In this document: in pieces, positions 4,753 to 48,096 of the stretch
Position numbering within the stretch: position 1 is the stretch's first letter
Layout: the number at the start of each line of letters is the position of its first letter
From: Candidatus Parcubacteria bacterium
Lineage (GTDB): Bacteria > Patescibacteriota > Minisyncoccia > UBA6257 > HR35
Reading direction: 5' to 3'
Assembly: GCA_026004495.1 (NCBI GenBank)
Contig: BPJG01000001.1
Location: 208,750-272,749 of the forward strand
DNA: 64,000 nt
Position numbers and translations under genes: made by a program
Notes under the pieces: generated by a model
The model's input: only the letters and a program-made list of their open reading frames with translations
Databases searched by the model: none
What the model was told of the DNA's origin: nothing

Positions 4753-4764
4753 AATTTATGGCTT

Positions 4765-5070: not shown

Positions 5071-5115
5071 TTCTCTCTCTTTCTAATATTTAATATCGAC
5101 ACTATATTTTCTTTT

Positions 5116-26693: not shown

Positions 26694-26715
26694 TTATTTT
26701 AAATTTATTTTAAAA

Positions 26716-26931: not shown

Positions 26932-27028
26932 TGGATATTGACATAATCTTATTAATTATATTTACCGATTTAAAAAAAATTAATTTATTTAGAAGATAAT
27001 ATTATAACATAAAAATTAAAAAATAAAT

Positions 27029-31080: not shown

Positions 31081-32163
31081 ATGAAAGTTTTAATTGTGAT
31101 CACACAAGGAGTAGTCGGAGGAGCGACAAATTCTGTTTATTTTTTAGCAAAAGGCTTAAAAGAAAAAAACATTGATGTTAAAGTTGGTTTTGGCGAAGGA
31201 GAATATTTGAAAGAAAAATTAGAAAAAGAAAATATTCCTTATATAAATTTTAAATGGCTGAAAAGAACCCATAATCCTTTAGCAAATTTATTTTTTATTT
31301 TTGAAATAAAAAGATTTTTAGATAAAAAAAAATTTGATGTTGTTCATTTTAATTCAACCAATGCTTTATTTGGATCTATTGGAGCAAAATTTTCTAAATC
31401 AAAACCAAAAACAATTTTTACTTTTCGCGGACTTTCAATTTTAGATCCTTATTATCAAAAAAATAAAATTTTAAAAACTATTTATTGGTGTATTTTTAAA
31501 TTTTTGCTTTTATTTATTGATGTTCCTGTCTTTGTCTCAAATCATAATTTAGAAATAACCAAAAAAATGAAATTAACTAATAAGGGAGTCGTAATTTATA
31601 ATGGAATTCCTGAGCCAGAATTTTTGGATAAAGAAACCTCAAAAAAATTTTTTGAAGAAAAATTAAAAATACCACTTGCAAATAAATTTATAATTGGATC
31701 AATTGGAAGGTTAGATTATCAAAAAAATTATGAATTTTTAATCCAAATTTTTCCTGAAATTCTAAAAACAAAAGAAAATGCAATTGCTATTATTATTGGC
31801 GAAGGAGAAGAAAGAAAAAAATATGAAAACTTAATTAAAAAACATAATTTACAAGATAAATTCTTTTTAATTGGCGAAATAAAAGATGCTTCAAGATATT
31901 TAAAAGCTTTTGATTCATTTGTTTTACCTTCTCGCTATGAAGGAATGTCAATAACTTTAATTGAAGCCTTATTTGCCCAAATTCCAATTTTAGCATCAGA
32001 TGTTGGAGGAAATAAAGAAATTATAGGAGAAAAATGTATATATGAATTTAATAATCAAAATGAATTTTTAACTAAATCTAAAAATCCCCAAATTCCACCA
32101 AAAGAAAAAATAAATGATTTTGAGATTAAAAACACAATTGATAATTATTTAAAAATTTACTAA
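31081..32163 (+). CDS. Glycosyltransferase family 1 (GT4-type)
   Basis: C-terminal EGMSITLIEALFAQIPILASDVGGNKEII (EX7E-type motif). Confidence 0.75.
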   Translation: MKVLIVITQGVVGGATNSVYFLAKGLKEKNIDVKVGFGEGEYLKEKLEKENIPYINFKWLKRTHNPLANLFFIFEIKRFLDKKKFDVVHFNSTNALFGSIGAKFSKSKPKTIFTFRGLSILDPYYQKNKILKTIYWCIFKFLLLFIDVPVFVSNHNLEITKKMKLTNKGVVIYNGIPEPEFLDKETSKKFFEEKLKIPLANKFIIGSIGRLDYQKNYEFLIQIFPEILKTKENAIAIIIGEGEERKKYENLIKKHNLQDKFFLIGEIKDASRYLKAFDSFVLPSRYEGMSITLIEALFAQIPILASDVGGNKEIIGEKCIYEFNNQNEFLTKSKNPQIPPKEKINDFEIKNTIDNYLKIY

Positions 32164-34043: not shown

Positions 34044-34083
34044 GAATACATTATACTTTTTATTTTTTCAAAATACTTTTTCC

Positions 34084-35280
34084 CTATATTATCTCCTTCC
34101 ATTTTAAAATAATATTTTTAATATCAAAATCTTTTGCTCTTTCAATGCTTAAATTTTTATACTTTTCAACTAAATAATTATTATTTAAAACTTTTTTGAG
34201 TGTTTCGATCCACATTTTTTCTTCGATTGTTAAATCATCTTTATGGTTTAAAAATCTATTTTGAAAAATAGGCATTAAAATTCCATACTGAGCAAATTCT
34301 GGTTCTTTAGTTTGAAAATTAAAATCAGTATCAGGAGCCAAAATCTCTCTTGGACCTGTACGACAATCAGAAGAAACTACCGGAACGCCATAAGCCATTG
34401 TTTCTACTAAAGCATTGGGGAAACCCTCAAATAAACTTGGAAAAATAAAAGCTTTAGAGTGAGCAATAAATTTATAAGGATTATTTTGAAAGCCTAAGAA
34501 ATAGACATCATAATCTTTAGTTAAATCATTTCTATCCCAAACAAAAGTTTTTAAATTAAGTCTTTGAGATAACTCAACTAAATAATTTTTTAATTCTCCT
34601 TCGCCTAAAATCACAAGTTTCAAATTAGGGAATTCTTTTTTAACTTCTTTAAAAATCCTTAATAAATACCATTGACCTTTTTGCTTAGTTAATCTACCTA
34701 CATTAATTAAGACTTCTTTTTGAAAAATAATCTCATATTCATCTAAAGGTTCTTTTATTTTTTCTTGAATTTCATTAAAGAAGATTGGATTATATATTAC
34801 CTTAATTTTTTCGGATGAAATGCTGAATGTTTTTATTAATTCATCTTTTATACCTTCTGAAACTGCTACAATTAAATTTGCTTTAGGATATAAAAATTTC
34901 GAAAGCAAATTATAAGGATGCAATTTAAATCTACCAAAAATTTGAGACATCCGAATTGAAACAATAGTTTTGTGCTTAGTAATTAAAGAAGTTAAAATAT
35001 TAACATAATTGCTTCTCTCTAAAAAAGAAATAATTACATCATCTGGATTAAGATATTTTTTAAGTCTTAAAGAATGAATAGGGATAAATAAAGTTTTCAA
35101 AATAGCATTTGTTTTGTAATTGTGTTTTAATAAAAAAACTACTTTTTCCTTAGGCACTTCATATTTTATATCTTTTTCTAAAAGAAATATTTTGTCAAAA
35201 TCTAAAGTTCGGAATAAATTAAAAGCAACTTTTTCTGCCCCACCGCCATAAAGTGAATTTATTAAAATAAATTTTTTCAT
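34084..35280 (-). CDS. Glycosyltransferase family 1 (GT4-type)
   Basis: EGFPNALVETMAYGVPVVSSD motif; 398 aa. Confidence 0.75.
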   Translation of the reverse strand: MKKFILINSLYGGGAEKVAFNLFRTLDFDKIFLLEKDIKYEVPKEKVVFLLKHNYKTNAILKTLFIPIHSLRLKKYLNPDDVIISFLERSNYVNILTSLITKHKTIVSIRMSQIFGRFKLHPYNLLSKFLYPKANLIVAVSEGIKDELIKTFSISSEKIKVIYNPIFFNEIQEKIKEPLDEYEIIFQKEVLINVGRLTKQKGQWYLLRIFKEVKKEFPNLKLVILGEGELKNYLVELSQRLNLKTFVWDRNDLTKDYDVYFLGFQNNPYKFIAHSKAFIFPSLFEGFPNALVETMAYGVPVVSSDCRTGPREILAPDTDFNFQTKEPEFAQYGILMPIFQNRFLNHKDDLTIEEKMWIETLKKVLNNNYLVEKYKNLSIERAKDFDIKNIILKWKEII

Positions 35281-36227
35281 TTAATTTTACCTTGAAAATA
35301 AATATGAGCACCTTGAATAAAAGGATAAATAAAAAGTGAAATCGGGATTAGAAAAAGGGTCCTAAAAAATTTTAAAGTTTTAATAAGATTATTTTTAAAA
35401 AGCTTATTCTTATTGTTTTTGTTTAAATAAATTTTTTCTCTTAATTTCTTTTTTAAATTAAAAGTATATTTACCAAATAACCAAATTTCTATAAGAGTTG
35501 CGATTTCAGTCAAACTTTTAGTATCGCTAATTTCGACAGAAAATCCCTGATGTTCAAAAAAATTTTTCAAAACCTTTTTAGAAAATCTCAAGAAATGATG
35601 AGGTGGTAAATCTGTTTTGTCATATTTACCTTGATATAAATTAATAAAAACTGACTCTCTATTAGGCACTGTTCCAACAATATAACCCTCTGGTTTTAAT
35701 AATATTTTTATTTGTTCTAAAAATTCTTTAGGTTTATCTTGATGTTCTAAAACTTCAAAAAATGTGATAACATCAAATTTCAAATCTTTTTCTTTAGCCA
35801 AATCAACAAATTCTTCTAAGCTCATCGGAAATACATTTTTTAAACCAAATTTATTTTTTGCCACTTCAATACTTTTTTTATCAAAATCAATGCCCCAGAC
35901 TTCAAATCCTAATTTTTGAGCCTCTTTTATAAAAACTCCATCACCACAACCTATATCTAATAACCTACCTTGATTTAAGAAAAATTTTTTGAAAAATGGG
36001 ATATGCCATTCTTGAATGTTTCTAATACCTGCATGATATAAATCATAAGCAATTTCACCTTCCTCTTCATAAAATTCTGGAATAATTTTTAAAGGCTCCC
36101 ACCATTCTCCGTCGCAATTTAGGCAATGATAAAGTTTATATTCTTGATTATTAAAATCAGAAATATATTTTTCTAAATATTTATCTGAATTTATTTCAAA
36201 ATCACATAATGGACATTTGTATTTCAT
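35277..36227 (-). CDS. Class I SAM-dependent methyltransferase with N-terminal Zn-ribbon
   Basis: CPLC...CLNC cysteines; motif I LLDIGCGDGVF; 316 aa. Confidence 0.7.
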   Translation of the reverse strand: MKYKCPLCDFEINSDKYLEKYISDFNNQEYKLYHCLNCDGEWWEPLKIIPEFYEEEGEIAYDLYHAGIRNIQEWHIPFFKKFFLNQGRLLDIGCGDGVFIKEAQKLGFEVWGIDFDKKSIEVAKNKFGLKNVFPMSLEEFVDLAKEKDLKFDVITFFEVLEHQDKPKEFLEQIKILLKPEGYIVGTVPNRESVFINLYQGKYDKTDLPPHHFLRFSKKVLKNFFEHQGFSVEISDTKSLTEIATLIEIWLFGKYTFNLKKKLREKIYLNKNNKNKLFKNNLIKTLKFFRTLFLIPISLFIYPFIQGAHIYFQGKIK

Positions 36228-37000
36228 TTTTGAAAAAAACTTAATGTTTTATAAGTCATAATTTTTATGATTGTCGAAATTAATTTGAAAGGACAATTTT
36301 TAAATAAATCTTTATAAAAATTTTTAAAAAATAAATAATGAACTGTTGCTAATCTTTTATAGTTTTTACTTTTAACCGATAATCTGTCTTCTAATTTATT
36401 ATTGTAAATTCTTGCAATTTTATTAGAAAAATAAGCTCTATATCCTCTTTTTAGAATTTTAATCCAAGTAATAGCTTCTCCTCCTTTTATGTTTTCTATA
36501 AATTTTTCTTCTAAAAAAACTTCTTTTTTAATTATAGGCAGAGCCTCGCCTTTAATTTTACATATAAAATCTTTATAAGTTAAATAGCCTTCATAATTTT
36601 TAATATTTATAGGTATATTACCATCTAAATCTTTGCAAGCAAAAATAAAAAAAGAAACATCAGGCAATTTTTGGATATAACTATAAATAATTTCTAAAGC
36701 ATCGACTGTTAATTCATCATCTGAATCTAAAAAAATTAACCAATCACCAATCGCTTTTTCTGAGCCAAAATTACGGGCAACATTAGGGCTTGAATTCCTT
36801 TCTAATTTAAAATATTTTATTTTTGATGATTGTTGTAAATATTTCTGCACCACATCCTTAGTATTATCTATTGATCCATCGTCAACAATTATCATTTCCC
36901 AATTATCAAAATTTTGTCTTAAGACACTTTCAATCGATTTATTAATTATGTAAACTCGATTATAAGTAGGGGTAATGATACTAAAAAATGCTCTATTCAT
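36224..37000 (-). CDS. Glycosyltransferase family 2
   Basis: FSIITPTYNR...IIVDDGSIDNT...DSDD (DXD) motifs. Confidence 0.8.
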   Translation of the reverse strand: MNRAFFSIITPTYNRVYIINKSIESVLRQNFDNWEMIIVDDGSIDNTKDVVQKYLQQSSKIKYFKLERNSSPNVARNFGSEKAIGDWLIFLDSDDELTVDALEIIYSYIQKLPDVSFFIFACKDLDGNIPINIKNYEGYLTYKDFICKIKGEALPIIKKEVFLEEKFIENIKGGEAITWIKILKRGYRAYFSNKIARIYNNKLEDRLSVKSKNYKRLATVHYLFFKNFYKDLFKNCPFKLISTIIKIMTYKTLSFFQK

Positions 37001-37917
37001 TATTTTAAAAAAATAAAATTATCAAAACCATTGGTGATCAAAGATAAATCCCCATATTTTTCTTCTAATTCTCCATCTTTAGTAATGAAATAAGATTTAT
37101 AGTTCCAATCTCTTAATAAATTCACTGCTCTCATTGATAATTCACCATTATTATCTTTACCCCATACTTCTAAACAAATCATTGGAGAATTGTTTTTAAG
37201 AAATTTTTCTGCTCCTTTTAAAACTTCGTACTCTGCTCCCTCTACATCAATTTTTAAAAAAGTTGGCAGAGTGTGTTTTTCTTCGTAAATATATTTATCT
37301 AATGTGGTTGAAAATACCTCTTTTATGGTCAAATTTTTAAAATGTAAAATATTTGACTTAATAGAACTTAATCCATATAAATCACCAGGTATGTAAAGTT
37401 TTAGTAAGCCCTCTTTGCCTGATAAAGCAACTTCATTTATAAAAACATTATTTTTATCTTTTAAATTTAATCTTAGGCTTTCTATACATTCTTTTATTGG
37501 CTCAAAACTATGAACTTCTTTACAAAATTCTAAAGCTAAATACGTATAATAGCCAAAATTTGCTCCGATATCATAAAATACATCTTCTGATTTAAGATTT
37601 CTAATTAAAAATTTGGTTAATTTCAATTCATTCGAATCTCTTAAAAATCCAAAATACAACATCGAGCTACTCGAATTTCCTCCTTTCAAAATAATATCTT
37701 TTAATTTCAGAATTTTAATTTTCTTTTTAATTGGAAATAGTCTGAAGATTAAAAAAGAGAAAGTAGAAAAAGGAGAATACAAAAATCTTAATAAGTTTCT
37801 TTTAAAACGAGAAAATAAATCTATTCCCTGCCAGCCTTCTTTATTCCATTCCTGAAAAAACTTTTCAAAATTATCAATTTCTTTTAATAAAAATTTTCTT
37901 TTTTGATCCAAATACAT
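37000..37917 (-). CDS. FkbM-family methyltransferase
   Basis: FYDIGANFGYYTYLA motif; paralog of 38939..39919. Confidence 0.7.
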   Translation of the reverse strand: MYLDQKRKFLLKEIDNFEKFFQEWNKEGWQGIDLFSRFKRNLLRFLYSPFSTFSFLIFRLFPIKKKIKILKLKDIILKGGNSSSSMLYFGFLRDSNELKLTKFLIRNLKSEDVFYDIGANFGYYTYLALEFCKEVHSFEPIKECIESLRLNLKDKNNVFINEVALSGKEGLLKLYIPGDLYGLSSIKSNILHFKNLTIKEVFSTTLDKYIYEEKHTLPTFLKIDVEGAEYEVLKGAEKFLKNNSPMICLEVWGKDNNGELSMRAVNLLRDWNYKSYFITKDGELEEKYGDLSLITNGFDNFIFLK

Positions 37918-37929
37918 TTTTTAATTTTA

Positions 37930-38967
37930 TCAAAAAACATACCACTGAACAAAGTATTTATTTTGAAAATAGCCCTTTTTATCCTTGTAATAATCCCAAT
38001 CTATATTTTTAGAAATTAAAATTAATGGAATATCTCCTAGGGCTGAAGCTAAAATACTAAAACTACTTTGACAACCCAAAATTATACTAGTTTTTGATAA
38101 AAGCCATAAATCTTCTACTGGATTTTTAGTCAATGGCTTATAAATATTAAAACCAGAAAACTTTACTAGATCAACATCGCCATTAGAACAAATAACAAAA
38201 CAAACTTTATCAAGATTAAGGTTTATAAATTTACAAATTTCATTAAATGACTTTATTAATGTTTCGTAATCATTTATAGAAAAATAAAACAAAGGGTCAT
38301 TTTCATATTTCCAATCACCATCTAATAAATGTTCTTTTTGTCTTAAATGAACACCAATTAAATAATCATATTGTGTTCCTAATTCATTGATTATTTCATT
38401 TACTTTATTTATATATTTTTCTTTAGGTTTAAAGAATTCTAAAATCTCTTGGCGATATTTTTTTATACCTTCAGGATTACGAAATAGCCAACCAGAAAAA
38501 TAAATAATTTTTACTTTAGGATCATTCTCTAATTCTAATAGTTTGCCTTCCGATGGTTTTGTCGGTGGTAAAAGATATACATCTAATGGTGACCGAGGAA
38601 TAAGCCCAGCATAAATAAAATTTTTTCCCTTTACTATTTCTAAAATGAAATAAAAAATCAAATAAAGAAGTTTAAAAATTTTTCTGATTATATAAAAGCC
38701 TAATCGTCTTTTTCTAAAATTTAATGGTTCTAATATATCAGAAAAAAAATTAAAGCCTTTATAAAATACTAAGTCAATAAAAAAGTTCTTTATCTTAAAA
38801 TCAAAATATTTTGTATACTCATAAAATTTATAACTATCAAATTCATAGCCTTTCTCTAAGGCATAAGCCAGTAATGAAATATGAACCCAAAGCTGATTAG
38901 CTAATTGAGAATCATTATGTTTAACTAAAATAACTTTTTTACAGACGTGGGGTTTTTGTGAAAACAT
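37930..38967 (-). CDS. Hypothetical protein, possible glycosyltransferase
   Basis: 345 aa ORF inside the glycan cluster; no confident family motif. Confidence 0.4.
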   Translation of the reverse strand: MFSQKPHVCKKVILVKHNDSQLANQLWVHISLLAYALEKGYEFDSYKFYEYTKYFDFKIKNFFIDLVFYKGFNFFSDILEPLNFRKRRLGFYIIRKIFKLLYLIFYFILEIVKGKNFIYAGLIPRSPLDVYLLPPTKPSEGKLLELENDPKVKIIYFSGWLFRNPEGIKKYRQEILEFFKPKEKYINKVNEIINELGTQYDYLIGVHLRQKEHLLDGDWKYENDPLFYFSINDYETLIKSFNEICKFINLNLDKVCFVICSNGDVDLVKFSGFNIYKPLTKNPVEDLWLLSKTSIILGCQSSFSILASALGDIPLILISKNIDWDYYKDKKGYFQNKYFVQWYVF

Positions 38968-39919
38968 AGTTTAAATCATTATATTCCTTTAAATAGATTA
39001 TTTTTTTATCAACCTGTTCTAATTCTCCATCTAGATTAATTTTATAAACAAATTTAAATCCTAAATTTTCTAATATTTCCACTGCTTTATATGAAAGATT
39101 TTCTTTATCGCTCCATACTTCCATAATAATCAGCAAAGAAGATTCTGAACTTTCCAGAAAATTTTTAGCTCCTTTTAAAACTATACTTTCTGCACCTTCA
39201 ACATCTAATTTAATAATAGTAGGAGGATGATGATTTTCTAAATATCTATCTAAAGTTATTGTTTTAATTTTAATCGGTTCTTTTCTAAATATAGCCTTAC
39301 AGCTATCATAGACATTATTTACAATTGTAGAAGCTCCAGTGCCATATTTACCAACATAAATATTTGTATAACCTTCATTATCAGACAATGCGAGATTGTT
39401 TAAAAAACAGTTTGAATCATTAGCTAAATTTTCTTTAATATATTCAAAAATAAATGGGAGGGGTTCAAAAATATGCACTTCTTTACAAAAAATAGAGGCT
39501 AAATAGCTATAATAACCAATGTTTGCTCCGATATCATAAAATATATCTTCTGATTGTAGATTTTTTACTAAAAATTTAGTAAGTTTTATATCGGGTAGAG
39601 ATGGAGGGCATCCAAAATGTATAAGTAATAAGCTACTTAAATCGTCTAAAGGTAACTGGATTTCTTTCATATTAAAAATATGAGTATGTAGGCTTTTATT
39701 TCGTAAAATAAATTTAGGTATAATTCTATTCAAAATATTGATAATTAAGGCAGGTAAATAGAATTGAGGACAATTTAGTAGCTTTAATAATCTGTCTTTA
39801 ATCCTATAACTTCTTAAAGTTACTATCTTTTTTAAACAATCTGTATCTACTTTCTTTTGTAAATAATTTAGAATTAATTTTCTCTTATCTTCTATTTCCA
39901 TGATAAATTTCTCCAACAA
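38939..39919 (-). CDS. FkbM-family methyltransferase (second copy)
   Basis: FYDIGANIGYYSYLASIFCKEVHIFEP, near-identical motif block to 37000..37917. Confidence 0.7.
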   Translation of the reverse strand: MLEKFIMEIEDKRKLILNYLQKKVDTDCLKKIVTLRSYRIKDRLLKLLNCPQFYLPALIINILNRIIPKFILRNKSLHTHIFNMKEIQLPLDDLSSLLLIHFGCPPSLPDIKLTKFLVKNLQSEDIFYDIGANIGYYSYLASIFCKEVHIFEPLPFIFEYIKENLANDSNCFLNNLALSDNEGYTNIYVGKYGTGASTIVNNVYDSCKAIFRKEPIKIKTITLDRYLENHHPPTIIKLDVEGAESIVLKGAKNFLESSESSLLIIMEVWSDKENLSYKAVEILENLGFKFVYKINLDGELEQVDKKIIYLKEYNDLNYVFTKTPRL

Positions 39920-41166
39920 TTAATTATTATTTTATTTTGGGGTAATTTTGATTTTATAATTTTATCTGGCAACATTAGAATTATAAGCTTGTTTTTTATA
40001 GCTGATTCTAGGTTATAAGCATAATCTATATCATTACTAAAAATTTTCTTCGTTTCTTCGGTGGCAAGTTCTATTGGATCATAAACTGTGATTTTGAGGT
40101 TTTTATTTTTCTTTAATAAATATTTTATCAAATTTATCGAAGCTGACTCTTCAATAACATAAGTTTTTGGTTTATAAGCTAAACCGATTATGGTTAAAGA
40201 TTTTAATTTATTTTCTTTTAAGATGCTTAAAATTTTGTCTCCTAAAAATTTTGTCTGAAACTCATTGATTTTATGCGCTGCCATAGGAATTAAGGCATCA
40301 ATTTTAGAAAATCTTTTAGCAAAATTATTGAAAGCTTTATTATCTCGAGGAAAGCAAGGACCGCCATAAGCAGTTCCATATCGAAAATAATAAGGGCCAA
40401 TTCTTTTATCTTTCCCCATCGCTTCAGTAATTTTATCAATTTCAGCACCAGGAATTCTTTCACAAATATTACCAAGCATATTAGCAAAACTAATTCTTGT
40501 TGTAATGTATGAATTAATTGCTATTTTTGTAATTTCAGCGCTAACAATTGACATTCGAGCTATAAATGGATTATTTAAACAAACTTTTTTCCATAAACTT
40601 TCAATAATATCACCTGCTTGTTTATTATTTTCTCCGATTAGAACTAAATCAGGTTCTAAAATTCCTTTGATAATATCTCCAATAGCAATAAAAGTCGGGT
40701 TATAAATAACAGTGAAATCTTGATTAAATTTTTTACCCGATAATTTTTCAATAAAAGGAATTATTTCATTTTGAGTTGAAAGTGGGCTTACAGTTGAAGT
40801 GATAGCAAAAATTTTAAATTGTTTAGCTTGTTTTAGATTGTCAGCTAATTGTTTGATTGCTTTTTTTAAATATTCATTAGAAAAACTTCCGTCTTTATTT
40901 GAAGGAGTTGGTACAATAAAAAAATAAATATCTGAAAAATTAAAAACTTCTTTAGGATCAGTCGTAGCCCTTAGTTTATTTTTAGATTTATCAATTAATC
41001 CTTGCAGGTTTGGTTCTAAAAATGGTGCCTGGTGATTATTTATTTTATTTACAATATTCTCATTAATATCACAACCTAAAACATTAAAACCGCGATAAGC
41101 AAAACAAGTGGCAAAACAACTTCCTAATTTTCCTAAACCGAATACTCCGATATTTTTTACTTTCAT
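39892..41166 (-). CDS. Nucleotide-sugar dehydrogenase (UDP-glucose/GDP-mannose dehydrogenase family), full length
   Basis: N-terminal GxGxxG (IGVFGLGKLGS); catalytic Cys motif GGPCFPRD; 424 aa. Confidence 0.8.
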   Translation of the reverse strand: MKVKNIGVFGLGKLGSCFATCFAYRGFNVLGCDINENIVNKINNHQAPFLEPNLQGLIDKSKNKLRATTDPKEVFNFSDIYFFIVPTPSNKDGSFSNEYLKKAIKQLADNLKQAKQFKIFAITSTVSPLSTQNEIIPFIEKLSGKKFNQDFTVIYNPTFIAIGDIIKGILEPDLVLIGENNKQAGDIIESLWKKVCLNNPFIARMSIVSAEITKIAINSYITTRISFANMLGNICERIPGAEIDKITEAMGKDKRIGPYYFRYGTAYGGPCFPRDNKAFNNFAKRFSKIDALIPMAAHKINEFQTKFLGDKILSILKENKLKSLTIIGLAYKPKTYVIEESASINLIKYLLKKNKNLKITVYDPIELATEETKKIFSNDIDYAYNLESAIKNKLIILMLPDKIIKSKLPQNKIIINCWRNLSWK

Positions 41167-42140
41167 ATTCTTCTTTGTTTTTTAAGTTGCTCTGCGATCC
41201 AGTGATAAGTTTTTTCAATGCCTTGTCTTAAAGAAATTTTTGGTTCCCAGTTTATTTTTTGACGAGCCAAAGTTAAATCTGCATTTCGACCGCGAACTCC
41301 AGTTGGGCCAGAAATGTGTTTTAATTTTAAATTCTTACCAGCAATTTCCATTATCATTTTAGCTAAACTATTAATTGAAATCAATTCTTCTGAGCCAATA
41401 TTAATTGGTCCTAAAAAATCTGAATCCATTAATTTTCTTACGCCCTCTAAAGCATCGTCAATATAAAGAAAACTTCTTGTCTGTTCGCCATCACCCCAAA
41501 TTTCAATTTCCTCTCCATCTTTAGCTAAAGCAACCTTACGACAAAGAGCTGCCGGTGCTTTTTCTCTTCCACCTTCATAAGTACCTTCTGGTCCAAAAAT
41601 ATTATGAAAACGAGCAATACGAACATTAATTCGATAATTTCTATTAAATGCTAAATACATTCTTTCTGAAAAAAGTTTTTCCCAACCATATTCAGAATCA
41701 GGTCCGGCTGGATAAGCATCTGATTCTTTTAATCCCGGATTATTTGGATCTGTTTGCTTATATTCCGGATAAATACAAGCTGATGAAGAATAAAAAACTT
41801 TACCCTTGAATTTTATTTCTTTTAGATAATAAAGACAGTTTAAATTAATTAAAGCTGAATTATGCATAATATCAGCATCATTTTCACCAGTAAAGACAAA
41901 TCCAGCTCCGCCCATATCTGCTGCCAATTGATAAACTTCATCAAAATCTCTATCTAAAATTTTTACCCAAACATTTGGGTCTCTTAAATCCCCAATAACA
42001 AAATCATCAACCTCATCTTTTGCAGAATATTCGGGATATTTTAAATCAACAGATCTAACCCAATAACCTTCATTTTTTAATCGACGAGCAAGATGATGCC
42101 CAATAAAACCACCACCTCCACAAACTAATGCTTTTTTCAT
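41163..42140 (-). CDS. GDP-mannose 3,5-epimerase-like SDR
   Basis: Collinear with plant GME: GGGGFIGHH, LAADMGGAGF (GME LAADMGGMGF), SSACIYPEYKQ, RFHNIFGPEGTYEGGREKAPAALCRK (GME RFHNIYGPFGTWKGGREKAPAAFCRK), IWGDGEQTRSF, GPTGVRGRNAD. Confidence 0.75.
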   Translation of the reverse strand: MKKALVCGGGGFIGHHLARRLKNEGYWVRSVDLKYPEYSAKDEVDDFVIGDLRDPNVWVKILDRDFDEVYQLAADMGGAGFVFTGENDADIMHNSALINLNCLYYLKEIKFKGKVFYSSSACIYPEYKQTDPNNPGLKESDAYPAGPDSEYGWEKLFSERMYLAFNRNYRINVRIARFHNIFGPEGTYEGGREKAPAALCRKVALAKDGEEIEIWGDGEQTRSFLYIDDALEGVRKLMDSDFLGPINIGSEELISINSLAKMIMEIAGKNLKLKHISGPTGVRGRNADLTLARQKINWEPKISLRQGIEKTYHWIAEQLKKQRRI

Positions 42141-42186
42141 AATAAATAAAAAATTAATTTCGGCTCTTATGATAATTATATCATAA

Positions 42187-43014
42187 TTAGCTCTTATTAT
42201 TTAACCAGTCTTGTTGTAATTTTTTAATAAGTTTTTGGTTTTTTAGATATTTATAATTCAATTTCCAGACAAATTGGAAAAGTTCAGGGTTTATTTTTAA
42301 TTTTTTATATAAATATATCAGGGCATTTAAATCTTTAGGTAAACATTTACCACCAAAACCTCGATAACCTTCATAAAAAACTTTAAGATGAGTTTTACCC
42401 AGTCTTGGTTCATTTTCCAAGATTTCTCTTAATTCATCGTAGTTTATTTTTAGTTTTTGGCACAAATCATAAACTTGATTAGCAAAGATAACTTTTAAAG
42501 CTAAGAAATCATTAATTGTCAATTTTGCTAATTCAGAAATTTTTGAGTCAACAATTTTTGTATAAGAGGCTTTAGGCAGAAGTTGAAGAATTTTTTCAGC
42601 TAAATTTTTTGATTTTTGAGTATAGCCGACTAACTGGATAACTGGCTTGACGAAATCTTCATACGGATATTTTTCTCTTAAAAATTCAGGATTATGAAGA
42701 AATTGATGAATTTTATACTTTTTTTGAAAATATTCGATTGTGCCAGGAAGGAGTGTTGATTTAACAATGAATACTTTTGGAGTTTTGAAATATTTAATGT
42801 TTTCTTCTAAGGCTGATAAATCATAACCTGTTTTTGGGCTGTAAGGAGTTGGCAAGCAAAGAAAAATAATTTTTGCTTTATTAACTTCTTCTAAGCTACC
42901 AATATTTTTAAATTTATCATAACCATAAACTTCAAATTTTTCCTTTTTCAGCCAATCAAATAAAGTTTGGCCAACAATACCTAAGCCAATTATTCCAATT
43001 TTTTGTTGTTTCAT
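42187..43014 (-). CDS. Truncated nucleotide-sugar dehydrogenase-family protein (NAD-binding + central domain only)
   Basis: IGIIGLGIVG Rossmann; GGKCLPKD catalytic-Cys motif; 275 aa, no C-terminal UDP/GDP-binding domain. Confidence 0.6.
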   Translation of the reverse strand: MKQQKIGIIGLGIVGQTLFDWLKKEKFEVYGYDKFKNIGSLEEVNKAKIIFLCLPTPYSPKTGYDLSALEENIKYFKTPKVFIVKSTLLPGTIEYFQKKYKIHQFLHNPEFLREKYPYEDFVKPVIQLVGYTQKSKNLAEKILQLLPKASYTKIVDSKISELAKLTINDFLALKVIFANQVYDLCQKLKINYDELREILENEPRLGKTHLKVFYEGYRGFGGKCLPKDLNALIYLYKKLKINPELFQFVWKLNYKYLKNQKLIKKLQQDWLNNKS

Positions 43015-43280
43015 TTTAGAAGTTTATAAATCCAGTTATGATGACCGATTAAATGAAAAATGGCTTTTTTATTTCCTGCAAAAGAAAAAATAATCCTGTA
43101 TTTTCTATCTACTCGAAACGACCATAAATTTTTTAGAGAATGCAATTTTTCTACTTTTAAAATCGGATTAAACGGTTGTCTTTCAAATAATCTAATCTTT
43201 TTAAAAGTCTTCTTTTTTATTGAATCTGGCAATATATCAAAAGTTTTCTCAAATTTTCTAGTATAAATAATTTCTATCAT
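43011..43280 (-). CDS. Type II toxin, RelE/ParE (YoeB-like) family
   Basis: 89 aa; KFEKTF...WSFRV..YRIIF...IGHH pattern; start overlaps upstream antitoxin stop (ATGA). Confidence 0.7.
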   Translation of the reverse strand: MIEIIYTRKFEKTFDILPDSIKKKTFKKIRLFERQPFNPILKVEKLHSLKNLWSFRVDRKYRIIFSFAGNKKAIFHLIGHHNWIYKLLK

Positions 43281-43513
43281 TAAATCAAATTCTTATATTT
43301 TCTATAAAGTTCTTTAATATTTTTCACTCTACCCTTTTTATAATCGTTAATTGATTCTTTAAGAGATTCTAAAAAATCTGGATTATAAAAACCAAATAAA
43401 TCTGCCAATTGTTCAAACTTCTCAGCATCAATTTTTATTATATATTTATCCTTAGTTTTTTTAATTTCCACTTGTAATTGAGGCATTATTTGATAAATTT
43501 TTAATTTTGACAA
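43280..43513 (-). CDS. Antitoxin partner of RelE-like toxin
   Basis: 77 aa ORF immediately upstream and translationally coupled to the toxin. Confidence 0.55.
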   Translation of the reverse strand: MSKLKIYQIMPQLQVEIKKTKDKYIIKIDAEKFEQLADLFGFYNPDFLESLKESINDYKKGRVKNIKELYRKYKNLI

Positions 43514-43735
43514 TCTTGAAATAAATTGTTTTTTTCATTTTAAAATTATAACACAGAATGAAATTTTAATTTCCCTGGGTTTATGCCTCTTTTCTCAAAG
43601 CTTTTTCTTATATCTTATAATCTTTGTTTTTATCTTAGTTTTATTTTAACATAAAAATTTATCTAACTAATACTGAGTAGATAAAAATACTATCATATTC
43701 CCGAGAATATAAGAATGTTTTCCCCTGTTTTTATT

Positions 43736-44127
43736 TTAAAAATCGTTTATTTTTAAAAATCTTTTATTTAAAAAATCGAGTAATTGAATTTCTTTAACCT
43801 TTTTAAAATCTGTTATATCTTTAGTAACCAATATTTGTTTGTAATAAATAGCAGTTGCTGCGATTATCGCATCTCCTATTTTTAAATTGTATCTCCTTTT
43901 TAATTCGGCAGCTAATTCGCTAATATCATCGTTGATATAAATTTTGCTAAATTTATTTAAAAAATTTTTGATTACTAAAATATCTCCGTCTTTTAATTTA
44001 GGATAAGATAAAATTTCAATAAAAGATATGAATGAAATAAATAATGGCGTATTTTTATACCATAAATTTTCCAATAATCTTACTATCTATTTTTTTGTTT
44101 TGGAGATAATAAATTAAGATGTTACTA
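43736..44127 (-). pseudogene. PIN-domain (VapC-like) toxin, frameshifted
   Basis: N-terminus MLIDSNILIYYL (PIN D-x-N signature) in one frame starting at an ATG overlapping the antitoxin stop. Remainder (….GDAIIAATAIYYKQILVTKDITDF) in another frame; shift near 44040-44060. Confidence 0.55.
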
Positions 44128-44299
44128 TCAATAAGCATATTCTTTTAGAATTTTTCTTTGATATTTAAAAGGATCAATTTTATCAGGCCAAATGCCCTTA
44201 GCTAAAATCCATTTGTACGGAATTCTCTCTACTTTCAATATTTTTTAATCTTTTTGTTCGTTGAGCTTTTTTAATTTTTTTGCAACCTGATTTCTCATT
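44117..44299 (-). pseudogene. VapB-like antitoxin remnant, two frameshifts in poly-A tracts
   Basis: Three-frame reconstruction MRNQVAKKLKK / KAQRTKRLKNIESRE / VERIPYKWILAKGIWPDKIDPFKYQRKILKEYAY*; breaks at A7 and A5/A6 runs. Confidence 0.4.
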
Positions 44300-44383
44300 A
44301 GACTAATTATAACAAAAAATTTATAACTAAATTAAATTCTTGTTTTTTATAAAGTCCATTAATATTTTTTGTTCTTCCCTCTT

Positions 44384-44517
44384 TATAATCTCTCTATCAC
44401 TTTTACACTTTTAATAAAATCTTCATTATATAAACCTAAGGCGTTCATCAGCCTTTCTCATTTATTTATATCAATAACTATTTTATTTTTATTAATTTTT
44501 ATATCTAAAGTTGCCAT
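44384..44517 (-). pseudogene. AbrB/MazE (SpoVT-AbrB fold)-like antitoxin with in-frame TGA
   Basis: MATLDIKINKNKIVIDINK-TGA-ERLMNALGLYNEDFIKSVKVIERL*; TGA at 44458..44460; other genes in the window use TGA as stop. Confidence 0.35.
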
Positions 44518-44519
44518 TA

Positions 44520-44800
44520 TTTAATTATATCACTTTTTAACTAAAAGAAACATTTGCTCAGGTTCCCAGATAGATTTATAATTTCGATTTTATAATTTTT
44601 TGATTCAAGAAAATTGATTACTTTTTTGAGTTCATCAGCAGCAACACGAGTTAAAAAAATTAACTCCTTCAAAATCTAAATCAATTTTAAAATTTCATCT
44701 CTTAATTTGATTATCAGAACTCATAAAAATATTTGCTGATCTAAAATTTTTTAAAACCCTTATAATCATTTTATAAATTAGAGGAAATTAAATTTTAAGT
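44520..44800 (-). pseudogene. Further short frame-disrupted ORF fragments (TA-module debris)
   Basis: Only 30-40 aa fragments in several frames (e.g. LTRVAADELKKVINFLESKNYKIEIINLSGN); ~800 bp without an intact ORF in an otherwise gene-dense genome. Confidence 0.3.
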
Positions 44801-44869
44801 TTTTTTGTTAAATTTTATCCTTGTATTTTAATTTTAGCAAAATTTGAAAAAATTTTATTTAGAAGAAAT

Positions 44870-45187
44870 ATGAGATATAATATTATTGCTATGAGAAAAT
44901 TCGGGGTATTTTTATTAATTTTAACCTTGTTGGTTAGTTTTTTGTATTTAAATTTTTCTAATTTTTATAACCTTATCTTTGCTCTTGACCAAGATAATTT
45001 TGATGTTTTGGATTATGTTTGGACCGTAAGCGATAGCTCGTTTTTATCTATTCTTATTGGTTTTGTACTTATTAACATTTTTACTTTTCTCTTTTTAACA
45101 AGGCTAAAAATTATCATTGAATCTCTTTTACTAAAAAATAATCATAACTATCCTAAAATAGCTTGTCGATCTCCGCCTTTAAATTAG
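44870..45187 (+). CDS. Hypothetical small membrane protein
   Basis: 105 aa, two hydrophobic segments. Confidence 0.35.
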   Translation: MRYNIIAMRKFGVFLLILTLLVSFLYLNFSNFYNLIFALDQDNFDVLDYVWTVSDSSFLSILIGFVLINIFTFLFLTRLKIIIESLLLKNNHNYPKIACRSPPLN

Positions 45188-45241
45188 TCTCTGGTTTAAT
45201 CTTTATTATCAATAGTCGCTCTTAAAACCTAATTAATTAAA

Positions 45242-45685
45242 ATGAAAAAATTAACCTTTGTCTTATTAACTTTAGTTCTTCTTACATCATTAACATTAGC
45301 TCAAACTACAACAACTTCAACTTCAACAATATCAACTCCTAAACATAAACCTGTTGTACCAGTTAAGAAAGGTGTGGTAAAGAAAGAAAAGGTTAAAAAA
45401 CTCTCATCTTATCAAGGTTGTGTTGGACAGAAAGTGAGAGAATTAACTAAAGAGATGCAAAGTAAGAAAAAAGAGGCTTTGAATAATTATCGAAATGAAA
45501 TTAAAAATGCAACCTCAACTACTGCTAGTCGTGAAGTAAGAAAAAATTATATTCCAGTCATTAGAGATATTAACAAATGGTACAACAGTGAATTAAGAAA
45601 AATCAAACAGGAGTGTAAAATAGCAACCACTACCCCAACATCAACTCCAACTACTTCCAATTCAACTGCAACCTCAACTCAATAA
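45242..45685 (+). CDS. Secreted Thr-rich hypothetical protein
   Basis: Signal peptide MKKLTFVLLTLVLLTSLTLAQT; T/S-rich termini; followed by a strong terminator. Confidence 0.5.
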   Translation: MKKLTFVLLTLVLLTSLTLAQTTTTSTSTISTPKHKPVVPVKKGVVKKEKVKKLSSYQGCVGQKVRELTKEMQSKKKEALNNYRNEIKNATSTTASREVRKNYIPVIRDINKWYNSELRKIKQECKIATTTPTSTPTTSNSTATSTQ

Positions 45686-45710
45686 TTAGGTCGAATTTAA
45701 TCACAACCCA

Positions 45711-45747
45711 AATCACCCCCATTTCGGGGGTGATTTAATTTATTTTA
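45711..45747. terminator. Rho-independent terminator (bidirectional)
   Basis: AATCACCCCC-ATTTC-GGGGGTGATT perfect 10-bp stem followed by TTAATTTATTTT; sits between convergent genes. Confidence 0.75.
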
Positions 45748-46117
45748 ATTTTTCAAAAAGATCTTTTAGATATTTTAAAATTTTTGGAAGTTTTTGATAG
45801 ATTTTGTCAGCTAATTCTTCGCTATAAATATGAGCAGTTTGATTCCTAAAATCTATTATTTTTAACCAATATTCGTCATAATCAATAATGCCTTCTTGAT
45901 AAGCAGAGCGAAAACAACTTTTAGGAGAATGACATTCAATTTTTTGATATTCCAATAGATATGCTTTTAATGTTTCCCAAGCTAAATCAAAGCAAATTTC
46001 AAATCTCTTTATTGCTGAATTGCGAGTTATTTCATTTTTCTCTTTATTAAGAATTTCTTAAAAACGCCTTAGTGATTTTTCAAATTTTTGAAGCAAATCT
46101 TCGAATATTTAATCATT
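45740..46117 (-). pseudogene. HepT-like toxin (nucleotidyltransferase substrate-binding family), disrupted
   Basis: Rx4HxY motif (RNQTAHIY); upstream in-frame segment IFEDLLQKFEKSLRRF-TAA-EILNKEKNEITRNSAIKRFEICFDLAWETLKAYL matches the HepT N-terminus but is interrupted by TAA (46059..46061). The only ATG (46115..46117) is in a different frame. Confidence 0.6.
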
Positions 46118-46422
46118 TAATTTAGATATTCAATCTTCTTTTTAGCAATTTTTTTAAATTCTTCATCAACATTATTAAAATCAACAAAATCTATTTTGTA
46201 AAGAATGGGTAAATTTTCTAATTCTTCTTCAATTTTAAATTTTATCTCTACTGGAATTTCTGGATCTTCTATCCCAACATCAATATCGCCTCGGTCATCA
46301 AAATTTTCATAAACTCTTTAACCAAAGAAAAAAACTTTATATTTACTTAGATCTAAATATCTGTTTAAAATATTCAGGATATCATTTTTCAGCTTGTTAG
46401 CTGGATAATGTCTAAGCTCCAT
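46118..46422 (-). pseudogene. MNT-like nucleotidyltransferase antitoxin with premature stop
   Basis: MELRHYPANKLKNDILNILNRYLDLSKYKVFFFG-TAA-RVYENFDDRGDIDVGIEDPE...; stop (46318..46320) replaces the conserved Ser of the GS motif (TCA->TAA); hG[GS]...D.D signature otherwise intact. Confidence 0.6.
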
Positions 46423-46444
46423 CAATTAAATTATACTAAATTAA

Positions 46445-46955
46445 TTATTTAACCACAATTTCTCCTGTAAATGATGGGTTTAAATGATCATGATAATACC
46501 ATTCACCAACTTCATTAAAAACAAAAAACCAACTTTCTCCTTTATTTAAACCTCGGCAGACATCAAAAATTTTAGCTTGCTCTGGAGTGCCACATTTTTC
46601 AATACCTGAACTGGGATAAACACGATGAGTTGGATGAACAGCCGATGCTGGCCAAGAAGGTTTAGAAGATTCATTAACCCAAGTAACTTTTGTTCCTTTA
46701 GTTATTTCAACTTCTTTTGGCTCAAAGCCATTATTAGTTATTCTGATAATGACTTCAGAAGTAGTTACTTTGGATGAAGGTGTTTCTGTTGATATTGTCG
46801 GCGTTGTTGGTGTAGAAGGTATTTCTAAAGAAGGTGAGGCTGGAGACCGAGACAATTTTGGCGTTAAAGATGGAGTTCTGTATTTATTAAAAAATAATAA
46901 CCGATTCCTAATAAAAAGGCTAAAATAAATACAGTAGTTATTAAATTCTTTCCAT
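46445..46955 (-). CDS. Cupredoxin-like domain protein, N-terminal signal anchor out of frame (possible pseudogene or assembly indel)
   Basis: Mature domain (FEPKEVEITKGTKVTWVNES...HPTH...C...C...YYHDH) in one frame; upstream ATG (46953..46955) and TM helix (NLITTVFILAFLLGIGYYFL) lie in other frames; breaks at A-run and T6 homopolymers. Confidence 0.45.
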
Positions 46956-47048
46956 TGAAAATTAATTATGTAATTAACATAAACAGTTCGGATATATTAT
47001 TTTGTTTTGTTTACTCCGTCCGTGTATAGCCTGTATTCAGCTTTTATA

Positions 47049-47666
47049 TTATATGGCCTTTTTATAATTTTCCTCTATTTTTTCCCAATTAACAACATTC
47101 CACCAACTTTGGATATATTCATTTCTGCGATTTTGATATTTTAAATAATAAGCATGTTCCCAAACATCAAGGCCCATAATTGGTAGATCTCCATTCATTA
47201 AAGGATTATCTTGATTTGGCAAAGAATAAACTTTTAATTTTCTATCTGAACTTACCACTAACCAAGCCCAACCAGAACCAAAATGTTTTAATGCTGTTTC
47301 TGAAAATAAATTTTTAAAATTCTCAAAAGAGCCAAAATTTTCTTCAAGCGCCTTTTTTAATTCTCCGATTGGTTCACTTCCACCATTTGGTTTCATTATT
47401 TCCCAAAAGAGTGAATGATTATAATGTCCACCACCATTATTTCTAACAACTGTTCTTATATCCTCAGGAAGTTGGTCTAAATTTTTCAATATTTCTTCAA
47501 GTTCTACATTTTGCCATTCAGGATATTTTTCTAAGGCTGAATTTAAATTATTAATATAAGTCTGATGATGTTTAGTGTGATGAATTTTCATTGTCATCTC
47601 ATCAATGTAAGGCTCTAGGGCATCATAATAGTAAGGCAATTTTGTTAAATTATAAGGATAATTCAT
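47049..47666 (-). CDS. sodA: Fe/Mn-family superoxide dismutase
   Basis: [18 protein letters not shown] metal-ligand motifs; 205 aa. Confidence 0.9.
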
Positions 47667-47739
47667 TTTATTTTTTATTATTTTAATATTAAAAACGACC
47701 TAAATAAAGATAAAAATTTTTAAAAGTATTTATTATATT

Positions 47740-47830
47740 GTATTATATTATTTATTATTTATTTATATATATTATTTTTATTATATTTTATTATATTATA
47801 TTATATTATATTAATATTTATTTTATTTAT
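47740..47830. repeat. AT-only microsatellite-like low-complexity tract
   Basis: Runs of (TTATA)n/(ATTAT)n in a 430-bp ORF-free spacer upstream of sodA. Confidence 0.6.
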
Positions 47831-48096
47831 TCAAATATATAAAAATGAAAAATTTTTATTTGAGGATTTTTATTAATTTCACTAATATTATCAGAATTTT
47901 TTACTCTAGTCAAAAAAAGAACTTAAGTAATCTGGTTTAGATTATCTAACTAAAAAATCAATAGTAAAATAATAACTTGTAATTTGTAGCAGGAAATAAA
48001 AAATTTAAAAAATTAAAAAGAAGAATACAAAAAGAGTCTGATATAAGTATAGAATAAATTTTGATAGTGAATTAATTTTAATTTTAATTTTAAGCT

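Follow-up and report, generated by a model that had tools for sequence, protein, structure and literature searches.

We find that a cluster of toxin–antitoxin (TA) modules lies at the edge of a glycan gene cluster in a Patescibacteria genome and that it is mostly pseudogenised. The cluster occupies 3.9 kb (43011..46955 of the window, by which we mean the whole 64,000-nucleotide stretch analysed) and holds one intact pair, of RelE/ParE type, and several broken modules: VapBC, an orphan antitoxin, a DUF4325/STAS-like gene, a HicB-like stub, an MNT/HI0074 (HepT-like, type VII) pair and a frameshifted cupredoxin-like gene. Most probably, this is a TA/defence hotspot between a conserved core and a swappable glycan cluster that has recently decayed by ordinary mutation; such decay is an ordinary kind of event, and all the gene families were already known. 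The source is the PacBio HiFi MAG KatS3mg094, assembled with metaFlye (PMC9671151), a member of a hot-spring Parcubacteria lineage with a genome of ~0.63 Mb. Coding density in the window outside the island is 94%, and the window's three tRNAs are all ordinary. The cluster comprises the following features, with the basis of each call in brackets.

43011..43280, minus strand: RelE/ParE-superfamily toxin, intact, 89 aa (ORF and Pfam)
43280..43486, minus strand: antitoxin of the RelE pair, intact, 68 aa from the ATG at 43486 (ORF; HR35 ortholog)
43512..43572, minus strand: HicB/UPF0150-like antitoxin stub and upstream region (HR35 comparison)
43736..44138, minus strand: VapC (PIN) pseudogene (two ORFs in different frames; PIN match when joined)
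44128..44298, minus strand: VapB pseudogene (tblastn and gapless DNA alignment)
44327..44517, minus strand: orphan antitoxin pseudogene, no toxin partner left (DNA alignment with HR35)
44541..44769, minus strand: DUF4325/STAS-like pseudogene (HR35 and L011 comparison)
44870..45187, plus strand: predicted membrane protein, 105 aa, intact, not a TA gene (ORF)
45242..45685, plus strand: secreted Thr-rich protein, 147 aa, intact, not a TA gene (ORF)
45708..45738, no strand: bidirectional terminator-like hairpin (11–14 pairs, 6 G-C, T tail on the plus strand)
45740..46116, minus strand: HI0074-family (HepT-like HEPN) toxin pseudogene (HR35 ortholog, Pfam, TIGR01987)
46117..46422, minus strand: MNT (minimal nucleotidyltransferase) antitoxin pseudogene (HR35 ortholog; Pfam Polbeta 33.3 bits)
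46445..46955, minus strand: cupredoxin-like gene with damaged 5' end (HR35 comparison)

The original prediction described a mostly decayed TA island at 43011-46422. The cluster is real, most of it is pseudogenised and a glycan gene cluster adjoins it as foreseen, but several lesion and family details were wrong, and the decay continues through the cupredoxin-like gene to 46955. Also overlooked were the DUF4325/STAS-like pseudogene (44541..44769), the HicB-like stub (about 43512..43538) and the two intact plus-strand genes in mid-cluster (44870..45685). Two of the checks that it proposed were made: orthologous loci were compared, and bacterium HR35 keeps intact MNT, HI0074, DUF4325-like and cupredoxin genes; a Pfam scan of reconstructed ORFs recovered PIN (63.3 bits, joined VapC), NTase_sub_bind (92.2 bits, repaired HI0074) and Polbeta.

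The RelE pair (43011..43513), predicted to be intact, is full length in both genes in the window and in HR35. As in type II RelE/ParE/YoeB systems, the antitoxin gene lies upstream, its stop overlapping the toxin start by 1 nt, and the 89-aa toxin passes the Pfam cut-offs for ParE_like (25.7 bits; cut-off 24.4) and ParE_toxin (24.9; cut-off 23). The HR35 toxin is also 89 aa long, with 94% nucleotide identity and no indel, and the antitoxin, whose ORF reaches upstream to a TTG at 43513, has a dN/dS of 0.09. Unlike in the known systems, the toxin is not assignable to RelE, ParE or YoeB, scoring below threshold for YoeB (24.2 bits versus 27) and TIGR02116 (26 versus 51.8) with YoeB and RelK as its nearest, weakly similar solved sequences, and the antitoxin has only sub-threshold similarity to DUF2683 (23.1 bits; cut-off 27). 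The adjacent HicB-like stub retains about nine codons (MKKTIYFKI); its HR35 counterpart is a 50-aa fragment with a below-cut-off UPF0150 match (19.1 bits), 116 bp of which are missing from the window.

In VapC, the N-terminus (MLIDSN..., 44138..44055) and the body (44074..43736) stand in different frames, as predicted for the D-x-N start and the PIN body, and the frameshift comes from the tandem duplication of 4 bp (ATAGATAG, 44090..44083). A poly-A slip was rejected as its cause, since no length change of the A7 run repairs the frame and each still runs into a TAG. The joined sequence covers PIN profile positions 1–118 of 120, and its closest intact homolog, P0027, is 63% identical; the region is missing from the orthologous locus of HR35. 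VapB had been thought to need two frame changes at poly-A tracts. A gapless DNA alignment with L008, the closest intact VapB, instead runs in a single frame from the ATG at 44298 to the stop at 44128 and needs only one in-frame TAA (44247..44245, opposite GAG in L008); in tblastn, 34 residues align at 65% identity with the VapB beside P0027. The pair resembles type II VapBC systems in its full-length PIN match after removal of the duplication, in the readable acidic residues D4, E (FIEIL), D (GDAII) and D (TKDIT), and in the short upstream partner gene whose stop overlaps the toxin start. It differs in the shift of frame that follows codon 16 of the toxin and in the antitoxin's early TAA, in that the short VapB family (50–56 aa) matches no Pfam or NCBIfam model, and in that VapC equivalog models are far off (38 bits versus 140). 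Because there is no close intact ortholog (best 63%), we infer the ancestral state and the age of the VapBC lesions only from the retained motifs.

The orphan antitoxin does carry the predicted in-frame TGA, which stands at 44460..44458 opposite TGG in HR35. It has also lost 6 bp in frame and its C-terminus is frame-shifted; the HR35 copy is itself truncated at the C-terminus. Its labelling as SpoVT/AbrB-like found no support: there is no Pfam hit, and blastn and tblastn show it to be paralogous to the RelE-linked antitoxin, with a weak resemblance to DUF2683. The neighbouring DUF4325/STAS-like gene has lesions of +1 (44756), -16 (at 44680) and +1 (44661) and a -1/+1 pair (44565/44557). It is intact in HR35 (80 aa; DUF4325 22.9 bits versus a cut-off of 23) and across the 67 codons present on L011, and in L022 a DUF4325 homolog (29.4 bits) is paired with a HATPase_c gene. 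Further along, the 105-aa membrane-protein gene is missing from HR35 and L011 and the 147-aa Thr-rich gene from HR35, and a distant homolog of the latter lies beside the L002 cupredoxin gene (30% identity, E 2e-14). The terminator-like hairpin separates the 147-aa gene from the convergent HI0074 pseudogene.

Both genes of the MNT/HI0074 pair are broken at the sites predicted. In MNT, TCA of the intact HR35 ortholog has become TAA at 46320..46318, the Ser of the G-S catalytic motif. In HI0074, TAA replaces the GAA of HR35 at 46060..46058, and the gene's only ATG (46116..46114) is out of frame: it is followed by an imperfect tandem duplication of 8 nt, so that the body frame has ATA at 46108..46106. 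The HR35 HI0074 is intact (122 aa, 89% amino acid identity). The toxin had been labelled HepT; it belongs more exactly to the HI0074 family (TIGR01987 82.9 bits), with TTHA0048 (1WTY) as nearest solved sequence (E 7e-28). The closest known system is thus the HI0073/HI0074 branch of type VII HepT/MntA (Shewanella SO_3165/3166, Legionella HEPN-MNT, Thermus TTHA0048), with which the window pair shares its gene order (a small MNT nucleotidyltransferase gene immediately followed by that for a HEPN-type protein of ~120 aa), above-cut-off matches to TIGR01987 and PF08780, the retained Rx4H motif (RNQTAH) followed by xY, and the G-S...DxD layout of the MNT ortholog. In characterised members, MntA AMPylates the toxin (PMC7641770, PMC11586414), whereas both genes of the window pair appear inactivated, MNT by Ser to stop and HI0074 by a displaced start and Glu to stop. 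Scores against the HepT and MntA equivalog models stay at 25 and 30 bits, below the cut-offs of 60. Truncated ORFs, such as a 71-aa HEPN half and, in VapC, a 112-aa PIN body, might still be expressed.

Decay reaches beyond the TA genes: the cupredoxin-like gene is damaged as well. Two 1-bp deletions, at 46952 directly behind the ATG and at 46894 within a T run, put its membrane-anchor segment out of frame, leaving a 136-aa TTG-started ORF; the HR35 gene is intact (172 aa, with an N-terminal hydrophobic segment), and the gene is fragmented also in L011/L035 and L038.

Were the stops and frameshifts consensus or assembly errors, the modules would actually be intact. The assembly is long-read-based, and up to about six 1-bp indels in or next to homopolymers (for example, those at 46894, 44756 and 44661) could individually be consensus errors. 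Most lesions, however, are not homopolymer slips: five base substitutions to stops and events of 4, 8, 16 and 116 bp are atypical of a HiFi consensus, and no change in A7 length repairs VapC. None of the 359 A/T runs of at least 6 nt in the window's other ORFs is frameshifted; the island has 27 such runs, and an error rate of even 4 in 27 would predict about 50 broken frames among the others. Over 4168 bp the window is matched at 100% identity by Logan contig DRR290133_226866, a re-assembly based on k-mers, but this may share the MAG's sequencing run and so adds another assembler, not an independent sample. The HR35 ortholog (L005) has TCA, GAA and TGG at the window's TAA, TAA and TGA and is without the window's indels, and relatives from other metagenomes carry analogous but different lesions in MNT-HI0074. 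Together, the kinds of lesion, the homopolymer control, the agreement with another assembly and the intact orthologs make an artefact very unlikely. We give even less credence to recoding, in which the interruptions would be bypassed, by decoding of TGA as Trp or Gly, by read-through of stops or by programmed frameshifting, and the genes expressed. TGA is reassigned in some candidate phyla, and the orphan antitoxin's TGA falls exactly on the ortholog's Trp codon; yet the window's long ORFs use all three stops (TAA 33, TGA 7, TAG 5), reading TGA as sense hardly lengthens ORFs, four of the five stop-creating substitutions yield TAA, the frameshifts differ in size and context with no shared slippery motif, and the same genes also have deletions removing conserved residues.

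The broken genes have a dN/dS of about 0.1 relative to HR35 (MNT 0.11, HI0074 0.09, DUF4325-like 0.09; SOD 0.10), and decay is therefore recent. Window-specific substitutions are not commoner than in SOD (15/309 and 9/185 versus 42/618), and catalytic motifs are still readable; polarised N:S ratios on the window branch rise only modestly, on small numbers (HI0074 7:8 and DUF4325 6:3, versus SOD 18:24). Sequence comparison documents the lesions, their absence from the orthologs and their recency. Loss could also have been selected, if knocking out resident RNase toxins and partners were advantageous, for example through cost or self-toxicity after a change in host or phage pressure. Selection would account for so many disabling changes where divergence is otherwise slight (at least 12 lesions at an overall dN/dS of about 0.1) and for repeated loss in sister lineages, MNT and/or HI0074 being independently damaged in 9 of 37 and adjacent HI0074 codons, 17 and 18, having acquired independent nonsense changes (window and L024). 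We nevertheless consider it unlikely. With 8–9% of random substitutions disabling in these AT-rich genes, about five stop or start losses need ~3% neutral divergence over ~1.7 kb, compatible with the observed 5% branch divergence; frequent indels at runs are expected; the non-TA cupredoxin-like gene is damaged too; N:S is also raised in SOD on this branch, pointing to generally weak selection; and the pair is intact in three-quarters of lineages. The number of stops fits neutral decay, and every stop-creating substitution (TAA/TGA) is a loss of G or C where the ortholog gives the earlier codon.

The island had also been described as an accretion zone under erosion. ‘Accretion zone’ is a fair description, because relatives carry other TA/defence modules at the same place (AbiEii+DUF6922, HATPase_c+DUF4325, PIN, DUF433/DUF5615, HicAB), but MNT/HI0074 is no recent accretion: across 37 related lineages it is an old, vertically kept resident beside SOD and glycan genes, in many of them next to SOD and UDP-glucose-dehydrogenase. 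Its members are damaged in about nine of the 37, each by a different lesion. Opinions may differ on whether decay is ‘unexpected’ in so compact a genome; about a quarter of the lineages have damage in this module. A search for an integrase, a transposase or flanking repeats found none. Like TA/defence islands in reduced genomes, it groups several unrelated modules at a variable-region boundary, varies in module content among relatives and contains orphan antitoxins and truncated toxins; it differs in its ~0.63-Mb Patescibacteria host and in the long-standing vertical residence of MNT-HI0074.

In the preferred reading of recent decay by ordinary mutation, the hotspot would lie between a conserved core (SOD and the cupredoxin-like gene) and a swappable glycan-synthesis cluster, which differs from window position about 42973 onwards. 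Nearly the whole stretch in KatS3mg094 would have lost function through stop substitutions, 4- and 8-nt tandem duplications, 16-bp and 116-bp deletions and a few 1-bp indels. VapB, VapC, MNT, the HI0074/HepT-like toxin, the orphan antitoxin and the STAS-like gene would be dead, as probably would the cupredoxin-like gene, leaving intact the RelE/ParE-type pair and the two small, unrelated plus-strand genes. The modules may formerly have been RNase toxins restrained by their partners, and their loss would have been neutral or nearly so, because selection was relaxed or because the population was small and subject to drift.

The window is AT-rich (GC about 0.21–0.33). Outside the island, ORFs of at least 90 aa cover 94% of the sequence, and 43015..47048 is the one long stretch that lacks them. 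Two further gaps of >300 bp without a long ORF lie at 47667..48096 and 26694..27028, the RNase P RNA gene (27641..28008) aside. Protein matches identified the source genome as Candidatus Parcubacteria MAG KatS3mg094 (contig of 634 kb), obtained with PacBio HiFi and metaFlye in a study of sediment from the Katase hot spring that places mg094 under Patescibacteria (PMC9671151). The original prediction had described a mostly decayed toxin-antitoxin (TA) cluster at 43011-46422; both the cluster and its decay proved real, with corrections to VapB, to the cause of the VapC break and to the identity of the orphan antitoxin, and its range should extend to 46955 to include a damaged cupredoxin-like gene.

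Features of the island and its glycan flank (window positions).
32160..43014, minus strand: glycan cluster downstream of the island, with UDP-glucose/GDP-mannose dehydrogenase family genes, an epimerase, FkbM methyltransferases, and GT2 and GT1/GT4 glycosyltransferases
43011..43280, minus strand: RelE/ParE-type toxin gene, intact 89-aa ORF (ParE_like 25.7, cut-off 24.4; ParE_toxin 24.9, cut-off 23)
43280..43486, minus strand: RelE-linked antitoxin gene, 68 aa, intact, upstream of the toxin gene and overlapping it
43512..43538, minus strand: stub of about 9 codons, putative remnant of a HicB/UPF0150-like antitoxin gene
43736..44138, minus strand: VapC pseudogene, N-terminus (MLIDSNILIYYLQNKK) and body in different frames
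44128..44298, minus strand: putative VapB pseudogene with a TAA at 44247..44245, overlapping VapC
44327..44517, minus strand: orphan antitoxin pseudogene, TGA at 44460..44458, C-terminus frame-shifted
44541..44769, minus strand: DUF4325/STAS-like pseudogene, broken by five indels
44870..45685, plus strand: two intact ORFs, for a 105-aa membrane protein and a 147-aa secreted protein
45708..45738, no strand assigned: bidirectional hairpin at the end of the two plus-strand genes
45740..46116, minus strand: HI0074-family HEPN pseudogene, ATG out of frame through an 8-nt imperfect duplication, TAA at 46060..46058 (codon 17)
46117..46422, minus strand: MNT pseudogene, TAA at 46320..46318 within the G-S motif
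46445..46955, minus strand: cupredoxin-like gene, damaged; two 1-bp deletions relative to HR35 and to L035, a locus of a third lineage, bracket the N-terminal membrane-anchor segment, now out of frame

The decisive comparison was with the orthologous HR35 locus (BEIL01000001, L005), reached through the intact HI0074 protein P0001, which is 89% identical. HR35 carries, in order, SOD, cupredoxin (172 aa), MNT (102 aa), HI0074 (122 aa), a DUF4325-like gene (80 aa), the orphan antitoxin (55 aa), a HicB-like fragment (50 aa), an antitoxin, RelE and then glycan genes. This comparison with related loci, which the original prediction had proposed as a check, found HR35 intact at the MNT, HI0074 and orphan-antitoxin stops: codon by codon, the window has TAA for TCA in MNT and TAA for GAA in HI0074, and in the orphan antitoxin TGA for TGG. 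At the start of HI0074, HR35 reads ATG-TTC and the window ATG-ATTAAATA-TTC, and none of the window DUF4325 indels, a 16-bp deletion included, occurs in HR35. In the third lineage (L011/L035), the DUF4325-like gene is intact over the part covered, MNT is deleted, HI0074 truncated and the cupredoxin gene broken.

HR35 has no counterpart of VapBC (window about 43572..44400) or of the two plus-strand genes (about 44845..45733). A repeat search of 43400..47100 gave nothing beyond short AT-rich chance matches: neither target-site duplications nor terminal inverted repeats flank these segments, which may therefore reflect either insertion in the window lineage or deletion in HR35. The adjoining glycan cluster has been swapped, with a precise breakpoint at window position about 42973, because after RelE HR35 retains no more than the initial 14 codons of the UDP-glucose-dehydrogenase-like gene (L005 11669-11710), followed by an unrelated glycan gene set. 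The upstream side of the island is formed by the cupredoxin-like gene and an Fe/Mn SOD. Between these two lies a fairly GC-rich segment of ~76 bp (about 46972..47047) that is missing in HR35 and L035 and has no match in Rfam. An Rfam search of the island likewise gave no match, and a promoter scan was uninformative (25 sites vs 26.6 expected in shuffles).

The RelE pair, with its model scores above cut-off, intact toxin ORF and upstream antitoxin, is conserved in HR35, and on sequence we assign the putative toxin to the RelE/ParE superfamily as a whole rather than to RelE, ParE or YoeB. The RelE gene has a dS of 0.18 relative to HR35, far below that of its neighbours (about 0.5–0.6), and a 68-aa ORF antisense to it (43060..43266, plus strand) is conserved in HR35 (L005 11413..11619); recent recombination or added constraint could account for this. 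The HicB-like fragment of HR35 scores 19.1 against a HicB/UPF0150 cut-off of 27.3, with only the short stub kept in the window.

The VapC gene yields a PIN score of 63.3 bits across the whole profile only once a 4-bp duplication is removed; as the sequence stands, D4 lies in another frame than the remaining acidic residues. Its closest intact relative (P0027) is only 63% identical. VapB had been thought to need two frame changes, and has instead one in-frame TAA: the VapB partner of P0027 aligns to it without gaps, with GAG opposite the TAA, and over the C-terminal 34 residues the two share 65% identity, in a family for which there is no curated model. The SpoVT/AbrB-like (MazE-type) identity proposed for the orphan antitoxin was rejected, as the sequence repaired across its lesions matches no Pfam family and the HR35 ortholog matches only DUF2683 (16.5 bits); the gene is a paralogue of the RelE-linked antitoxin.

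Once repaired, the HEPN gene is recognized by its family models (PF08780, 92.2 bits, cut-off 31.8; PF01934, 26.5, cut-off 23.5; TIGR01987, 82.9, cut-off 55.8), although it does not reach the narrower HepT_toxin equivalog NF047751 (25.2 vs 60), and it lacks an uninterrupted frame with a start codon. Direct translation recovers its Rx4-6H RNase motif (RNQTAH then IY), which is kept in all aligned HI0074 homologs but the decayed L011 copy (K for R). MNT adjoins the HEPN gene and scores 33.3 bits with Polbeta (cut-off 26.9), but its G-S Ser codon is TAA, so that the window copy lacks the complete MntA-type motif, and its MntA equivalog score is 30.1 vs 60. Since the cupredoxin-like gene is hit too, decay is not confined to TA genes. 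This gene is also fragmented in L011/L035 and in the related locus L038.

Scanning metagenomes with the HI0074 alignment yielded 52 loci, which together with the window and other related loci form 37 lineages (≥97% nucleotide identity). The MNT-HI0074 pair is an old resident of the SOD/glycan neighbourhood rather than a recent arrival, because it adjoins SOD and/or a UDP-glucose-dehydrogenase-like gene in many lineages (L022, L024, L026, L027, L029, L030, L038, L041 and L044). It is damaged in 9 of the 37, window included, and each lesion is different: an MNT stop (L009/10), HI0074 E18 to stop (L024/26/27), an internal MNT deletion with an HI0074 stop (L028), an MNT stop with an HI0074 deletion (L038), deletions in MNT-HI0074 (L011/35, L056, L058) and an MNT frameshift (L062). 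Modules beside the pair in relatives include AbiEii with DUF6922, HATPase_c with DUF4325, PIN, DUF433/DUF5615, HicAB and AAA_14/DUF4143. Because relatives carry HATPase_c with DUF4325 beside MNT-HI0074, the comparison suggests that one half of such a pair survives, as a remnant, in the STAS-like gene of the window. Its intact HR35 ortholog falls just below the cut-offs (PF14213, 22.9 vs 23; STAS, 21.3 vs 22.6) and the copy in the window is too degraded for scoring; a relative in L022, which sits after a HATPase_c gene, scores 29.4.

In L009 (7632-8381) and L010, MNT ends at a premature stop beside an intact, extended HI0074 (131 aa); the toxin would then have lost its antitoxin, unless it is itself inactive or the MNT stop arose as an error in assembly. 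In L012-L020, a group of relatives from hot-spring metagenomes (for example, L012:5632-6381), MNT and HI0074 are fused into one ORF of 249–257 aa, joined by a linker of about 22 residues; fused MNT-HEPN systems have been described recently (PMC13000451). On the same flank in MAG 03V1_S199 (L002:1803-3278 and 4371-5199; 71%-related), there are DUF433/DUF5615 and HicB/HicA-like genes, with HicA seemingly truncated, and a split antitoxin-like ORF. The dehydrogenase-like gene of L002 is split into two ORFs, on a contig whose name gives a low coverage of about 3x, which leaves room for errors.

Consensus error is contradicted on several counts. Five lesions are substitutions to stop codons and others are 4-, 8-, 16- and 116-bp events. 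The VapC break is no slip at the adjacent A7 run: lengthening or shortening that run never restores the frame, since a TAG follows in the body frame, and only removal of one copy of an ATAG duplication does so. Long ORFs elsewhere in the window contain 359 A/T runs of at least 6 nt (113 of at least 7) without a single frame break; the island holds 27 such runs. The Logan assembly of run DRR290133 contains a 4168-bp contig 100% identical to 42986..47153, which counts as a second assembler and not as a second sample, as the run may be the same HiFi data set; exact-protein look-ups of the RelE, 147-aa, 136-aa and 275-aa proteins for the same strain in other samples gave only that one Logan contig or nothing. 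Recoding of the interrupted genes is unlikely, because each of TAA, TGA and TAG is in use as the stop of long ORFs in the window (33, 7 and 5, respectively); reading TGA as sense gains little, and an alternative code was rejected in favour of code 11. The lesions can be relied on as biological changes.

Pairwise dN/dS relative to HR35 is as low in the broken genes (MNT 0.11, HI0074 0.09, DUF4325-like 0.09) as in SOD (0.10) and the intact antitoxin (0.09). With L011/L035 as third lineage, window-specific substitutions number 15/309 in HI0074, 9/185 in DUF4325 and 42/618 in SOD, with window-branch N:S of 7:8, 6:3 and 18:24, respectively; in the long-dead L011 copy of HI0074 the ratio is 16:6 and the catalytic Arg is gone. 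These ratios and counts show that the broken genes were under purifying selection for nearly the whole time since the HR35 split and were disabled recently, and the catalytic motifs still readable in the window (PIN acidic residues, RNQTAH, DID) agree. In these AT-rich genes 8–9% of random substitutions disable, and therefore a few percent of neutral divergence is enough to give about five stop/start losses in about 1.7 kb. There is no need for selection for loss to explain the lesions, and positive selection on inactivation, proposed from an excess of disabling lesions, was dropped as the main reading, the disabling rate and branch divergence being compatible with the damage. We regard as improbable, against plain drift, a reading in which selection against resident RNase toxins or a regional event (for example, transcriptional silencing) lies behind the repeated loss, in about a quarter of lineages, of an ancient MNT-HI0074 module kept by purifying selection in a clade of hot-spring Parcubacteria, and behind the near-simultaneous loss of the window block. 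The original picture of an eroding accretion zone is broadly right, except that the largest of its modules is ancestral, erosion set in recently and extends to a non-TA gene, and similar erosion is common in relatives.

All families involved are known (type II VapBC and RelE/ParE; type VII HEPN/MNT, PMC7641770, PMC11586414), and nothing in the island points to a system of a new kind. That a variable region collects TA pseudogenes and orphan antitoxins is familiar; a literature search on TA pseudogenes in Patescibacteria gave no directly relevant paper. For annotation, seven or so ORF fragments of this MAG are pseudogenes of named families and not ‘hypothetical proteins’, for example, KatS3mg094_240 (PIN fragment) and KatS3mg094_243 (HI0074 fragment). 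The locus provides a clean, dated case of ongoing gene loss in an ultra-small Patescibacteria genome, with an intact HR35 locus and many metagenomic relatives for comparison. The glycan-cluster boundary is a turnover zone for TA modules, in which a long-kept type VII module has repeatedly been dispensable.
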